Part shown: positions 3,001 through 15,000 of the stretch, piece after piece
Numbering within the stretch: the first letter of the stretch is position 1
Layout of the letters: every line of letters starts with the position of its first letter
Position numbers: made by a program
Source: a plasmid
Strand: one strand, 5' to 3'
DNA: 64,000 nucleotides
Sequence record: NZ_KX832927.1

Positions 3001-6000
3001 TTACCAAACAAGTTCCTTGCCCTTACGAAGGTAAGTCGGGATTTCGAGATAATCCCAGTCAGGTTCTTGTTTAGCGACTTCTTGAACTTGAGTTACCTCA
3101 GGTTCAACGACTGCTTTGGCTTGTTCAGCCTTGGCAGCACGTTCTTTGATGACGGCCTGTACAGACCGCATTGCAGGAACTGCGAATTTGTTCCAAAGGA
3201 ACAAACCGATACGCTGGAACACTTTAGCGAGAACGATGAAGGAAAAAGCAAATGCCTTCGCGCCTACGTACAGTGCGCCCAGAGATGCAAGCAGAACTAC
3301 AATGAAAGTGATGATGTGCATGGTGTTGCTCCTATGTAAAAAAACAGGGGCAACACCCGAAAACCGGGAGAAGCCCCCGGCTTGGGGTTAAGTAATGCCA
3401 TACGGCATAAGACTAGATGCTGTTTGTTTTCGGAGACCAGCTATCTCACCTATAGCCGCAGAGCGACTAAGATGATTCAAATATAGCTCACCTTTGCTAA
3501 ACAGAAAACGCTGTAACTGTCCATTTTGGGCACTTCGAGAGGTCAGGTTACAGATTGACCGCATTTATCCTTTCCAGTGCGTTTATCTGTACCTCAAATT
3601 TAGGAGTATCTCTAATGGCAGAAGCACAAGTAGCACTGGACACAAACAACGACCGCAGCAACCACTACTCTCGCCCTGTTTTCAAGCAAGTTCTGAAAGT
3701 AAACAGCCTCCAAGCTCAGCGCGTCATGGAACGCAGCTTTGAGCGAGTTTCCAACTCCCTGTTCTCCATCGACGTGATCCTTCGCATCATCGGTGAGCAG
3801 GACGAAATCGACCAGGTTGAAACCGTCATCCTGGAACACATTTCCAAGGTCTCCGAAGACCTGGACAAAGCTACCGCCCAGCTCAACAAGCTGATGGAAG
3901 ACAACGGCATCGACATGATGCCCGGCTACACCAACCCGAATGAATACACCATCGAGATCAACTCTCCTCAGGTTGCTCAGTTTGCACACCTGATCCGCAA
4001 ACTGGATACCCTGATGGGGATCGTTGACACTCTCTGGCTGAACACCGTACTGACCAGCAAGCAGCGCACCGACGCCACTTACCAATGGCAGCAACGCCTC
4101 ATCAAGCTGGCCGGTCGAATCATCGGCATCGAGAAACGGGCTCGCATTTCCGCCCACAGCAAAGGCAAAGAAGGTGAAGTGGCCGAAGCCGCTCCGGAAT
4201 CTGCAACCGGCGACAAGGAAATCGCAGACGAAGCCGAGAAAACAAAAGCAGCATAACCCAGCCCAAACCTTTGCCCCTCGCCCGAGGGGCTTTTTTTTGT
4301 CTTTTATGGTTGCATTTTTTGATGCTGTGATATTATCGAAGTAAATCAGATTCAACTCAGGTAAGAACGGAGAACAACATGAAAAAGGCTTTAATCACCA
4401 CCGTGGCTCTGGCTGTAGCAGCTCTATCTGGCTGTGCATCCACCAGCAGTTACGAACCCACAGCGTACAAAACCAATCACAGTCGCGCTTACAACATCGC
4501 GGAGGCCGGTGGCCTGGTAACAGGCATCCAAGACGCTTCTGTTCCGCGTGACAAGCTGGAGCGTCTGACCGACACCAAAACGTTTGGGGCAGCCTACGTG
4601 CTGTCTGGCTACATGTCCCCTCAGCTCGGAATGACCGACTGGCAAGGTGGCTTGGTCAACCTTGCGAACTGGGCTATCGGCCCCAAACAGCATGGCGCTC
4701 GCAATAGCTTGATCGCTTGGATGCCTGCTAACGAAGCAGTTTCACCGGCAGACGCTCAGGCCAAATTTCTTTCACATGTGAAAGTTTCCATTGAGTCAGC
4801 GCTGACTGATTTGGGTGCCAATTTCACGCTTCTGTATGACAAAGATGGTCGCCTAACCTATCAGTTCTACAAGAATGAATGGGGTTGCCCGACGTGGGTG
4901 AACGGACAAAGTAAGGTAGCTGACATGTGTTCCGTTAAGGTGAAAATCGTGGAGCCTCGCCTAGGGTCAGCTCCTAATTTTGTCTCTGGCGTTCAAGGTA
5001 CAGCGTATGCCTTCACATCAGGCCATGAGACCGCATACAACTTTGTGAATGTCGGTAATGGGGCAGCAAGCCATGCTCCTCAGCAAGCGATCTACGCAGC
5101 TATTAGCAAACAGCTACCAGCTTGGGCCTACCTCTACCTTGCTCCAAAATCGGTTGAGCTGGATAATGGCGAAAAAGTTGCTTTCCCTTACCTTCTTGAT
5201 CAGGGAAAAGCAGAGTTATTTGTTTACCCAGAAGCGTAATCAATCTACATGAGAAAGGGGCCTTTCGGAGTATATAGTGAATTTTGTGTACTTCTGTTGG
5301 TGAGTGAGTGAATGCCCCATAAGCAAAGGCTTTTGGGGCATTTTTAGTTTTTACACGGTATGTAATTTGGTGTGTAAAAATAGGAGCACTTGCTCCAAGG
5401 GCTCTGCCCTCTCGCCGCAAGCGGCGATTCACCCGAGGTATTTCACGACCAGCGATGTGATCCAGTGAGAGCACAGATACAGATAACTTCCTCGGGGATG
5501 CTTAAAAGTGAGCAATGGTCGTACCACCATACTCATACTGTAGCTGGAGGATGCCATAATAAATTGGCCGCCCGTAGCTTTGGTCGCAAAGCGAACGTTC
5601 AGATTTCGGAATAACGCTTAGGTAACCGGCGCCGGAGCGCCAGCGGAGGGAACCAAAAGCGGCACGCTTTTGGCGTCCGGTTGACCGCCTTGTTACATGG
5701 TGATTCGATAGTATCCGCCATACTCTCCATCCTTAGAACCACTGTGCGTGGCCTGCCAACCCAATTTTTGGGCCACTCTCTTGCTGGCCACATTATCGTC
5801 CGCGATGAAGACCTGAACGGTATCGAGGTCGAACTCTGTGGATAGCCTTTCAACCGCCAACTCGCAAGCCTTGGCAGCTATCCCGTTTCCCCAAAACTCC
5901 GACCTGATGAAATAGCCGAAGTCGAAAACGCCATCTATCTGCTTAATACCGCAGAACCCGATAAATTCATCTTTATCAGCCTCTGCAATAGCAAAGCGAG

Positions 6001-12000: not shown

Positions 12001-15000
12001 CAGGCCGTTCTGGCCACGGGAATCACCAAGCGTGTGACGGCTCATACCTTTCGGCATGCCTTTGCGACAGAGTTATTGAGATCGGGGAGCGATATCAGGA
12101 CGGTCCAGGAAATTCTTGGGCATAGCGACATTCGAACGACAGAAATCTACACGCATGTCATTGGCGATCGACGTGCTGGAACCGTCAGCCCTTTTGATCG
12201 TTTGCCAAGTTCTTGATGGGGCGTTGCTTACCCGTTTAAGGGGCGTAAAGCCTGGAATTGGGAGTGCGGCGAATGTCCGCTTTTGTTTATGAGCTGATTT
12301 CGAGGTATTTGACGACCAGCGATGATCGTTTAAGATGAAGTTGCGGTACAGGGAGAGGTCCCGATGGCCGCGACCGGCGATGAGGGGGCGTGCCATTAAT
12401 GGCTTACCCCCGAATCCCTCTCTTGCAGCAGCTCCCTCAAGAAACTCGCCCGCCTGGTGGCATTGCTTACCGATTTTACGATGGACGCAAAATCACTAGC
12501 CTGCCCGACAATATGTATCTCTGCCTCGGCACGGGTAATCGCCGTGTAAAGCCACGCACGGTCTGAGATACGCCCCGTCTGGACTGCCACGATGATTCTC
12601 GGGAACTGGCTCCCTTGAGCCTTGTGGAGCGTGATTCCGTAGCCAAGCTCCATGCAATCGAAGACTTCATCCGTAATTGAAATGGCTTCGCCGGTATCCA
12701 GCGTCACGACACCAAATGTTTCCTGGCCGTCCTTGGTGTCGCGCTCTGTTGAGGATAATACGCCAAGAGACCCATTCTGAATGCCGATGTTGTACTTGTT
12801 CCTGGTGAAGAGGATCGGGTCGCCCACTCTGATATCGAGGAAGAATTCATCGCCATGCAGTCTAAACTGCAAGCACTCCCCATCGGGATTGATCAGCTTT
12901 TGGCACTCACGGTTCACCTCGCCAACTAGAGCCTTGGTGGCTCCGATGATCTGAGTGTTATAGGGTGACTCCGCATACAAGGATTTGCACTTATCGACCA
13001 TCTTCTGCGGAGGCGTCTCGTGGAACGTGATTGCGCCAACCGATAACGCAGGAGGCACCTCACCCCGATTGATGGTGGCCGAGTATTCCGGGATGCCCGT
13101 TGAGTCTTCCTGGCGTTTGACGATGTTCAACTCAACCGTAGCGATTGCACCGGACTCAACGATGTCTGAGAGGACTTTGCCGCAGCCGATGGCTGGTAGC
13201 TGGTTCGGATCGCCGGTCAGGATGATGCGTACCGAAGGATCGAGGTGCGTAACAATCCGATACATGGTCGGCAGGTCGGTCATACTGGCTTCGTCGATGA
13301 CCAGGAGATGCTGCGCCTGATCCAGTGACGGCGAGATCGGCTCTTCCCGCAACAGGCGAGCAATTGTCATGGTGAAGAATCCGATGCTCTCGTGCAGTCG
13401 CATAGCAGCTCGCCCCGACAGAGCGACGGCATGAACCTGATAGCCTAGTGCGGCATAGGCTTTGAGCACGGCACGAAGGACCGTGGTTTTACCCGTACCG
13501 GCACCACCCGTAATGCAGGACACCGCATTGGTAAGGCTCAACTCGACCGCTTGGACCTGCTGCTCGGTCAGGTCGTAGGGCAACTCCTGAACGGCCTCGG
13601 TGAGCGCCTTGAAGACGGATTCATCTTCATTCTTGATGGCGGCCAGGGCCTTGAGCCGCTTCGCAACGACCGACTCCATCATGATTTGGGCGGTAGGGTG
13701 GTAGGTGCCGGTCTCTGGCCTGAGAATGAACTGGCCGTTGCGATAACCGCTGGCGAACGCCTCTGCGACCAGAGCTTTATCGCCCAGAAGCTTGGTCACC
13801 TCGGGCCTGAGCGCCGGATGGGAGGCGTAGGTGTGCCCCTTTTCTACCTCTTTTCGTATCGCGCTTTCTAACGCAGCTGCGAGCCGCACCGGTGCCGATT
13901 TATCCATGCCCATTTTTTCAGCAATCGCATCGATATCGGGAAAAGGCATTCCGAATCCGAGCAATGCGTAGGGATTGGTCTTGAGTACCTCAACGGTTCG
14001 ATTATCGTGGTACTTTAGAATGCGTTGCTGGATGCTCAGCGGCACTCCCAGAGAAGCCAGCCAATTCGCATGCGCAAGGTTTTTGTACTTGGCGTAGCCG
14101 TTGTATAGCGCGGTTACTGAAACCTCGCTAAGAACCTCCCTGAGACGGCCTCTGTGCTCGGAGGTATTGGATTGGAGCATGGGGTGCAGGTCACTGCCAA
14201 AAACGTTCCAGAGGGCGCGTGCTTTGGCCTCACCGATACCGGTGAACTCCTTTTCATTGGCAATGAAACGGATCAGCGCCTCGCCCGTTTCCGGCAGCGT
14301 GCACTCCATCTCAGCTGGGGCGTCATACAAATGTTGCTGAAGCTTATAATCGCCTGCCTGAACGGTCTCCAGCGTCCTTACGCCACGCACTCGCCATTGC
14401 TGACCAACGGACGGCTTGATAGGCAGGGACTGGTTTTCGCATCGGATGCTGACGATGTATTTGCCCGAGTTGATCTTGTAACTGTCAGTCTTGAGGGGAA
14501 CGCCCGTGAAGATCGTGTATTTATAGCCGTTATGCTGGCAGCTGGTGACACGGAAATACTCTTCATGCATCGGGCGCTACTCCGAACTCTGTGAGGACTT
14601 CGGACAGTTCACCGTAACGTTTTAGCTTGGCTTCGAGGGTTGCCACCCGGGCCTTTAGTTCAATGTTTTCCTGCTCCAGCACTGAGAGCCTTCTCGATTC
14701 CATGGCTCTTTTGTTAACGCTGGGATCATAGCGTTTGGGTTCTGATCGCTGGGCCTTGGCGGTTTCGGTCAGTTCTGGCAGAACACCCCGATAACGCAGG
14801 TTCTGCTCCAGATTCTCCAATGCCGTTTTGATGGCCGGATTCTGGCGCAACGCGCTCTTTCCGATGCCTATGGCTTTGGCCACTTCGCCACGGTTTAACT
14901 GGCCCCGATGGAGGATCTGCTTAAAATCGTCATCCGTTTGGGTGGCCACCCAGCTCTGGAAGGCACTCAGGTTCTGACGTGCTCTTTCCTGACCATTACT

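Follow-up and report, generated by a model that had tools for sequence, protein, structure and literature searches.

A Marinobacter-type integron, complete and probably active, as cargo of a Gamma-Mobile-Trio island in an IncC plasmid

Integrase, attI and cassette array

The DNA analysed here is a stretch of 64,000 nt from plasmid record NZ_KX832927.1, to which we refer as the 64-kb window, and it contains an integron unit at positions 5582-12289. In the map of open reading frames (ORFs), the integrase gene intI lies on the plus strand and diverges from eight minus-strand ORFs that run from 10886 to 5693 in cassettes spanning 10905-5615, and behind each of the eight lies an imperfect palindrome with AAC...GTT at its limits. 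The integron accounts for all of the cargo of a Gamma-Mobile-Trio (GMT) island, and the island occupies the loop of a terminator hairpin between a lipoprotein gene and traN in a conjugative IncC plasmid. An original prediction, made from the sequence of the window alone, had described a non-class-1 integron with an integrase divergent from a minus-strand array of eight cassettes, and the integrase profile, the IntI-specific segment, the attI junction, the positions of the ORFs and the attC site behind each of them bear this description out. The GMT/IncC context and the identity with Providencia plasmids were absent from that prediction.

The full intI reading frame extends over 11146-12216 (plus strand), and from the annotated GTG start at 11248 it encodes a protein of 322 aa (11248-12216), which identical RefSeq records name WP_008169685.1. 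Profile searches with Pfam and NCBIfam, which we used for all family calls on proteins of the window, identify the product as an integron integrase over its full length (TIGR02249, 401.7 bits against a cut-off of 265). IntI aligns gap-free with the solved VchIntIA across the IntI-specific segment (...KYxxAxxxFxWxYLFPS...), and all catalytic residues (R135, K162, H266, R269, H292 and Y301) are kept in conserved motifs. The protein shares 45.1% identity with IntI1, 48.8% with IntI2 and 43.6% with IntI3, it matches the class 4 integrase VchIntIA at 126 of 318 aligned positions (39.6%), and with 286 bits it does not reach the cut-off of 435 bits of the IntI1-type equivalog NF011946. The ORF map contains neither an adjacent qacEdelta1/sul1 pair nor a tns/tni module at the integron. 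The alignment with IntI1, which the prediction had itself named as the comparison that could refute it, leaves the non-class-1 call standing. By comparison with IntI1, IntI2, IntI3 and VchIntIA, the integron is genuine and belongs to a non-clinical class without a name, although its IntI may already bear the class number of IntI5, IntI9 or IntI10. Mechanistically the integron is ordinary; what sets it apart is its pedigree and its vehicle.

The core of attI lies at 10900-10945 (minus strand), with the crossover between G10906 and T10905. The junction of AATAAGCTG with TTA is unchanged in 12 of 12 loci, at least nine different cassettes adjoin it, and the similarity among platforms begins at 10902/10903 in all relatives. 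A LexA-box-like palindrome, CTGTACGTACATACAG, is located at 11210-11225, 23 bp upstream of the intI start, and given a LexA-type box in this position, SOS induction of the integrase is probable.

For the attC sites, the prediction had given ends of the form RYYYAAC...GTTRRRY. This did not hold up: strict expressions of the consensus match none of the 16 boxes, in which only the AAC and GTT triplets and the structure are conserved, and attC sites were therefore called by folding of the bottom strands with only the AAC:GTT triplets forced to pair. All eight sites fold canonically: in each the R box is paired and the spacer unpaired, bulged (extrahelical) bases interrupt the L stem and the loop is variable, in line with the structural features expected of them, and the canonical folds cost 0-3.7 kcal/mol above the free minimum. 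The unconstrained minimum-energy fold is non-canonical for the attCs of the dfrA, HIT-like and GNAT cassettes, where forcing the AAC:GTT pairs costs 1.0, 3.7 and 1.0 kcal/mol, respectively.

The first cassette carries dfrA (10413-10886; like all cassette ORFs and attC sites, on the minus strand). Its product scores 289 bits against a cut-off of 250 with the DfrA1-like model NF000330 and is 60.5% identical to DfrA1, as had been estimated (~60%); it is not a new allele, as had also been proposed, because it is 98.73% identical to DfrA46 (AMRFinder annotation of an identical plasmid sequence). Judged by sequence, it is a DfrA46 variant and belongs to a clade of trimethoprim-resistant dihydrofolate reductases. 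The attC of this cassette (10293-10417, 125 nt) is of the Vibrio-repeat (VCR-like) type recognized in the original prediction and has 88-94% matches at numerous positions of Vibrio plasmids, in which the entire cassette (10293-10906) also recurs as a discrete unit with 95-97% identity. A chromosomal integron of Colwellia chukchiensis (L033, 6519-7017) contains a dfrA cassette that is 94.9% identical in protein and 96.4% in nucleotide sequence, which hints at an environmental source of the dfrA6/31/46 group.

The second cassette (ORF 9009-10232, attC 8905-8991) encodes a protein of the erythromycin-esterase family (Pfam Erythro_esteras only), which preserves the family part of the earlier EreA-like label and not the EreA part: the protein is 61-62% identical to EreA/EreA2 and reaches 580 bits with the EreA model, for which the cut-off is 750. 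A macrolide phenotype is possible. The attC has a 90.5% match in the array of Marinobacter SS8-8, and the cassette (8904-10302) recurs with 95.6% identity in a class 1 integron of the IncP plasmid pALTS31. Because the dfrA and esterase cassettes recur elsewhere as units, their limits are confirmed independently. The pALTS31 integron, from wastewater biosolids (L088, 5106-6998), has the order intI1-dfrA48-[esterase]-aadA1-blaOXA-2-qacEdelta1-sul1; its esterase is 93.9% identical in amino acid sequence to that of the window and follows a dfrA gene in both arrays, and despite the matching gene order dfrA48 is just 59.9% identical to the dfrA of the window.

Two of the six distal cassettes encode members of families that had been anticipated: a DinB-family protein in cassette 3 (ORF 8342-8884, attC 8270-8347; PF05163, 92 bits) and a GNAT acetyltransferase (Acetyltransf_3) in cassette 8 (ORF 5693-6157; PF13302, 98 bits), for which no resistance-family model reaches its cut-off. 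The attC of cassette 8 (5609-5698) ends in the R' box GTTATTC at 5615-5609 and has an 89% match in a Porticoccus array. Cassette 4 (ORF 7846-8247, attC 7752-7836) encodes a DUF413/MaoP-like N terminus (PF04219, 45 bits) and, in the translation, two CxxCxGxG zinc-finger motifs. In cassette 5 (ORF 7399-7731, attC 7312-7396) a "123-aa" ORF opens inside the preceding attC, and the real GTG start lies downstream, at 7731 behind an AAGGAGG ribosome-binding site, and yields 110 aa, the length also given by gene calls; the HTH label formerly attached to this protein found no support in any library searched (Pfam, NCBIfam, PADLOC). The 168-aa protein of cassette 6 (ORF 6786-7292, attC 6695-6778) has a signal-peptide-like N terminus and NGS repeats and a 71% identical homologue in the array of a Marinobacter metagenome-assembled genome (MAG; L011), and neither it nor the 110-aa protein belongs to a family in Pfam, NCBIfam or PADLOC. 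For the 146-aa product of cassette 7 (ORF 6242-6682), the proposed HIT hydrolase is reduced to a weak PF01230 match below the Pfam cut-off (E=0.0026, 18.8 bits against 21.5), with a motif that reads HFHIF and not HxHxH. The attC of this cassette (6173-6260) begins within the 3' end of the ORF, at 6260, and has 84-85% matches in three Marinobacter arrays.

The attCs of cassettes 4, 5 and 6 form the 85-bp family that had been proposed, with coordinates that were right within 1-2 nt and two members that are 98.7% identical. The family had been taken as private to this array, and this does not apply: a profile made from its three window copies also finds it in Marinobacter salexigens, in a Marinobacter MAG (4 copies) and in Colwellia, Porticoccus, Salinivibrio and other arrays. 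In total, six of the eight attCs find matches of 84-94% in the arrays of other integrons, and for the 85-bp, HIT-like, GNAT and esterase attCs the matches in this range lie in marine arrays, mostly of Marinobacter. The observation of an integron at this locus is far beyond chance.

Marinobacter relatives and bounding repeats

The cluster of IntI proteins at 90% identity has 371 members; 40 of these were read and 13 of the 40 carry names, all of which are Marinobacter/marine except for one Providencia fragment, and none of which is Vibrio cholerae. A sister cluster at 91% identity is also Marinobacter, and the nearest named integrases from outside the genus (Oleiphilus, Vibrio taketomensis, Photobacterium, Alteromonadales) are at most 68% identical. 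In a survey in which one genome per species was scanned, intI is 100% identical in M. manganoxydans and M. persicus, 99% in Marinobacter SS8-8 and Salinivibrio costicola, 95% in M. flavimaris and 87-90% in other Marinobacter. The Marinobacter copies adjoin housekeeping or catabolic genes (rpoD/dnaG; mimR/PQQ-alcohol dehydrogenase; argA), and the arrays beside this IntI include ParE/RelB and CcdAB toxin-antitoxin cassettes, which are a signature of chromosomal integrons. The prediction had seen the look of a chromosomal array in the window, and indeed the identical IntI sits in Marinobacter chromosomes next to arrays rich in toxin-antitoxin cassettes.

The similarity to the chromosomal integrons of M. 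manganoxydans MnI7-9, M. persicus and M. flavimaris comprises an identical or 87-95% identical IntI, shared attC families, the repeats at both ends, and 99.1-99.6% nucleotide identity over 10903-12289 (IntI, attI and the 3' flank), and intI itself is conserved to this degree across hosts although the cassettes differ. Those integrons are at chromosomal sites and contain toxin-antitoxin and unknown cassettes, whereas the integron of the window has dfrA and the esterase cassette and is part of a plasmid-borne GMT island. On these sequence comparisons, the platform comes from the marine Marinobacter integron pool.

The same attI-intI platform is found on other conjugative plasmids. In the Vibrio alginolyticus IncC plasmid pVb1796 it carries blaVMB-1-dfrA1-blaCARB, and in a conjugative plasmid of Marinobacter sp. 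SBY-1 it carries bla-qnrVC1-gcu-bla. Both integrons have one IntI protein in common with the window, a 99.5% identical platform, the bounding repeats, capture at attI and a location on conjugative MOBH/MPF_F plasmids; they differ from the integron of the window in their cassettes and in being neighboured by a tyrosine recombinase and two large proteins instead of GmtYZX. Two such modules, which besides the tyrosine recombinase and two large unannotated proteins encode a TetR regulator or a small protein, abut the integron end in SBY-1 (L087, 7156-13635), L025 and pVb1796 (L002, 9430-14456). BLASTP gave no similarity of the pVb1796 or SBY-1 module to GmtYZX or to each other, and these modules may represent further families of recombinase-trio islands.

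The integron is bounded by a 13-bp inverted repeat, GGTCGC-AAAGCGAACRTTC ... GAATGTYCGCTTT-TGTTTA. The left copy (GGTCGC-AAAGCGAACGTTC, 5582-5600) marks the distal end of the array and the edge of the cargo slot, and at the right copy (GAATGTCCGCTTT-TGTTTA, 12271-12289) the platform ends in more than ten contexts. In every copy that includes the array end, similarity stops at both repeats and the DNA outside differs from context to context. The pair bounds the integron in more than ten unrelated contexts, which include GMT islands, hot spots in Marinobacter chromosomes and two further recombinase islands (repeat-bearing loci besides the window are L002, L008, L009, L010, L011, L087, L098, L099 and L111), and it likewise flanks cargo other than integrons in GMT backbones that are otherwise identical. 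Target-site duplications were looked for outside the bounding repeats and none were found. Compared by eye, the repeats have only a weak resemblance to attC boxes and to the dif/XerD arm consensus.

In Marinobacter DNA the two halves of the repeat are often joined as a palindrome with a 13-bp stem between tandem modules, among them an alcohol-oxidation operon and a second integron. A scan of marine metagenome contigs for the right-half motif returned at least 123 copies (L118-L237); among the matches listed, approximately 16 adjoin intI and 28 are complete palindromes, 10 of which abut an array end or attC. At several chromosomal sites, contigs that share one outside flank continue into different modules, a pattern suggestive of hot spots for the exchange of modules. 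In a Porticoccus MAG (L006, 11071-13708), a second integron with a distinct 333-aa IntI lies head-to-tail with a Marinobacter-type integron, and a single copy of the palindromic repeat separates the two. A move of the platform as an IntI-made mega-cassette into the array of the other integron was considered for this arrangement and ruled out, as the ~50 nt to the neighbouring attC are the bounding palindrome.

On a cautious reading, a common Marinobacter-type palindromic repeat marks break-points at which modules are exchanged and loaded into cargo slots. That the integron itself (array, attI and intI; 5582-12289) is a discrete exchangeable module is a more tentative proposal, which we consider possible and rather doubtful. 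If a site-specific recombinase of the GMT type, the Xer type or another type acts on the palindromes, they would constitute a second, larger-scale cassette system, in which whole integrons and operons would be loaded into hairpin-targeting islands and which would provide a concrete route for a chromosomal integron to become mobile. The pdif modules of Acinetobacter plasmids are discrete gene modules flanked by short inverted recombination sites in many contexts, and, by analogy, they resemble the units described here in being repeat-bounded and found in many contexts; unlike pdif sites, the bounding repeat GAATGTTCGCTTT has, by eye, just ATGTT in common with the XerD-arm consensus.

The GMT island and its copies

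The island (GAGTATATAGTG...CTATAGAGAAC) spans 5268-19873 and comprises 14,606 bp. Its left-end backbone (5268-5581) is 90.6% identical in Salinivibrio (L008) and 95% identical in the integron-free islands L111 and L117. To the right of the integron follow, all on the minus strand, genes for a RecD-like AAA ATPase/helicase (12396-14570; RecD-like matches in PADLOC and HHH_RecD2/AAA_30/UvrD_C_2 in Pfam) and a VPA1267-family protein (14563-15006; NF040697, 194 bits against 90), gmtX (14996-15664; NF040692, 228 against 40), gmtZ (15661-18282; NF047926, 989 against 600) and gmtY, which encodes a tyrosine recombinase at the island border (18279-19751; NF040693, 529 against 340) and lies 122 bp from the island end. 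The GmtYZX trio at the border together with the inverted-repeat empty site defines the vehicle as a GMT island.

The target is the terminator hairpin between traN and the lipoprotein gene of the IncC backbone. The left arm AAAGGGGCC is at 5254-5262, the loop (GAAA) and the right arm GGCCCCTTT are at 19874-19886, and beyond the right arm comes the 3' end of traN (19889-22699, minus strand). The uninterrupted empty site AAAGGGGCC-GAAA-GGCCCCTTT, with ~5262 joined to ~19874, is present in pSHE-CTX-M and in hundreds of IncC plasmids. Island copies that are 99.9-100% identical occupy at least six other hairpin sites in Providencia plasmids and chromosomes: the traN-terminator hairpin in opposite orientation (pPROV161-1, copy A), the traG terminator (pPROV161-1, copy B), a glpX/PTR2 intergenic hairpin in both orientations (two chromosomes) and a malic-enzyme/rhomboid hairpin are among them. 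Every one of the seven insertions has GGGCC/GGCCC arms on either side, and taken together the traN terminator, the traG terminator and three chromosomal hairpins hold insertions in both orientations. Both island ends recur in diverged relatives from Salinivibrio costicola and M. persicus. Between each island end and the neighbouring arm lie 4-5 nt (5263-5267 and 19874-19877) that vary, with TTTC or GAAA on the gmtY side and TCTTA, CGAAA or CGTTA on the other; presumably this is where the GMT reaction makes its crossover.

GMT islands have been described to insert into inverted-repeat naive sites, to form a circular intermediate, to transfer by copy-and-paste and to spread on plasmids (bioRxiv 10.1101/2023.03.28.534373). 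The island of the window is similar to islands such as VPaI-6 of Vibrio parahaemolyticus (Mahata et al., bioRxiv 10.1101/2023.03.28.534373) in its gene order (gmtY-gmtZ-gmtX at a border, then a VPA1267-family gene) and in having an inverted-repeat insertion site, plasmid occurrence and variable cargo. The cargo described for GMT islands consists of anti-phage defence systems, T6SS effectors and resistance genes, and the word integron is absent from the text (bioRxiv 10.1101/2023.03.28.534373). The difference, then, lies in the cargo: in the window all of it is an integron, and therefore one gene-capture device is nested in another. We found no paper that describes this integron, a class name for it or its nesting in a GMT island; the sequences of both integron and island are already public and machine-annotated.

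A 7-kb region of the window is 100% identical to four clinical Providencia IncC plasmids (pCHS4.1-1, pPROV224-1 and the PROV170 and PROV161 plasmids), GmtY in its exact form appears in 128 blocks of the assembly collection, and the eight-cassette array is 99.93-100% identical in nearly all Providencia copies. One copy differs in its cassettes: L116 (GCA_028658355.1, JANIDU010000010.1), a traN-side island that is 99.98-100% identical, has an extra 1009-bp qnrVC1 cassette exactly at attI (equivalent to 10903-10906), with a VCR-like attC and a product identical to QnrVC1 at 218 of 218 residues. The same copy has a group II intron encoding a 448-aa reverse transcriptase/maturase at the 5' end of the HIT cassette attC, at ~6254-6260.

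Variation at the level of the whole cargo is seen in the integron-free islands L111 (GCA_040930455.2, CP170494.1) and L117 (GCA_002384935.1), which keep the backbone, with 86% nucleotide identity over 12270-19887, 95% over 5268-5600 and an identical RecD-like ATPase protein. Their cargo consists of ~6.7 kb of copper/metal genes for SCO1/SenC, CtaG, DsbA, two cation-diffusion-facilitator (CDF) efflux proteins and LspA, and metagenome contigs have at least three additional cargos next to the same backbone junction.

Two or three identical copies of the island can be present in one replicon, which is consistent with copy-and-paste. The chromosome CP017671.1 (GCA_001874625.1, 4.78 Mb) contains three copies (L112, L113 and L114), two of which have hybrid flanks, one arranged as glpX-island-IncC lipoprotein gene and the other as traN-island-PTR2 transporter, and therefore an IncC plasmid is integrated between two island copies as a cointegrate. 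In pPROV161-1 (239,029 bp; L085 and L086), two copies at the traN and traG terminators are ~70,773 bp apart. Plasmid pPROV224-1 (168,272 bp; L003) is 70,757 bp smaller and bears the outer flanks of both copies, from which we infer that it is pPROV161-1 minus 70.8 kb, as expected for a deletion by recombination between the copies, which would take traF, traH and traG with it.

Elsewhere in the window, at ~52858-62990, is a Tn10-like tet(B) transposon with an IS4-family (IS10-like) transposase, a GltS-like symporter, an ArsR-like regulator, TetR, Tet(B) and TetC. An IS5-family transposase (60811-61791) lies between tetC and the second IS10-like copy, the transposase ORF of which is 16 aa shorter than that of the first.

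Activity, mobilization and spread

Combining the anatomy of the locus with the comparisons to its relatives, we consider it highly probable that the window contains a complete, probably active Marinobacter-type integron as the cargo of a GMT island in an IncC plasmid. In this model, IntI would insert and excise promoterless cassettes at attI by recombining folded attC hairpins. The six distal cassettes, with their marine and mostly Marinobacter-type attCs, would be baggage from the marine pool, and the dfrA and esterase cassettes that adjoin attI would have been captured last; six marine distal cassettes and two proximal cassettes of resistance type with attCs from different pools give an order that fits serial capture. 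The dfrA and esterase cassettes should also be the best expressed, because they are nearest to attI. The carrier is the GMT island and not a Tn402- or Tn7-like transposon, and it would copy itself into the loops of GGGCC/GGCCC terminator hairpins, with IncC conjugation spreading the entire nested structure.

Several observations weigh against this model. All island copies examined but one carry the identical eight cassettes, and recent IntI activity within the island therefore rests on the single gain of qnrVC1. A consensus scan of 10850-12420 for the cassette promoter Pc gave no match of at least 9/12 on the cassette strand. The LexA box ahead of intI is a motif match only, one of two matches to CTGT-N8-ACAG in the 64-kb window. 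As to the cassettes, the esterase stays under the EreA model cut-off, the six distal cassettes lack an assigned role, and in PADLOC, which served for defence families, no cassette matches a known anti-phage defence family.

One alternative is that the integron is a frozen relic of a sedentary chromosomal integron, a passive passenger of the island with an IntI that no longer recombines in its present hosts. The near-identity of the array among Providencia copies, the lack of a detected cassette promoter and six cassettes without obvious benefit in a clinical host would all fit such a relic. On the other hand, intI is intact with all catalytic residues and is 99.1-99.6% conserved across hosts while the cassettes differ, the qnrVC1 cassette was gained precisely at attI in an island that is otherwise 99.98-100% identical, and the two attI-proximal cassettes have Vibrio-type and Marinobacter-type attCs, as for serial capture. 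We therefore regard loss of activity as improbable and favor the model of a probably active integron.

A second alternative concerns origin. The class 9 integron of SXT begins with dfrA and lies in a conjugative element whose backbone belongs to the SXT/IncC family. As the prediction had hinted, the integron of the window, just downstream of traN in an IncC backbone that is related to SXT/R391 and with dfrA as its first cassette, could be of class 9 or a close relative of it in a backbone hotspot. However, the 13 named members among the 40 of 371 cluster members that were read are Marinobacter/marine bar the Providencia fragment and include no Vibrio cholerae, and, unlike the SXT integron, the integron of the window came in as part of a GMT island, for which both the ends and an empty site are defined, and not by an independent insertion into the backbone, which makes this a very unlikely explanation. 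Finally, an ordinary clinical class 1, 2 or 3 integron that merely looks divergent can practically be dismissed: a dfrA cassette is present and a class 1 integron likewise contains the esterase cassette, but the identities of IntI to IntI1, IntI2 and IntI3 (45.1/48.8/43.6%), the NF011946 score (286 against 435) and the missing qacEdelta1/sul1 and tns/tni genes speak against it.

The model of a Marinobacter-type integron mobilized by a GMT island invites comparison with the class 1 integrons, in which an environmental chromosomal platform was mobilized by a Tn402-type transposon and then gained dfrA and other resistance cassettes. Here, too, an environmental platform has been mobilized by a carrier and has acquired resistance cassettes, and the esterase cassette of the window occurs in one of the class 1 integrons. 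In contrast to them, IntI is 45% identical to IntI1, the carrier is a hairpin-loop island with a tyrosine recombinase and not a res-hunting transposon, and there is no 3' conserved segment.

To our knowledge, nearly all resistance integrons of pathogens belong to classes 1-3. The first mobilization of chromosomal integrons has mostly been reconstructed afterwards, for class 1. Here, a marine integron can be traced in public data from chromosomal copies with toxin-antitoxin cassettes, via the cargo of GMT and other islands, to conjugative IncC-type plasmids and on to Vibrio (seafood) and hospital Providencia, and the cassettes gained en route comprise dfrA, the esterase cassette, qnrVC1, blaCARB and the carbapenemase gene blaVMB-1. 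Screens that are limited to intI1, intI2 and intI3 would miss this integron. The GMT island that carries it multiplies inside genomes and is able to join plasmids to chromosomes, and the system is tractable for testing how integrons are mobilized.

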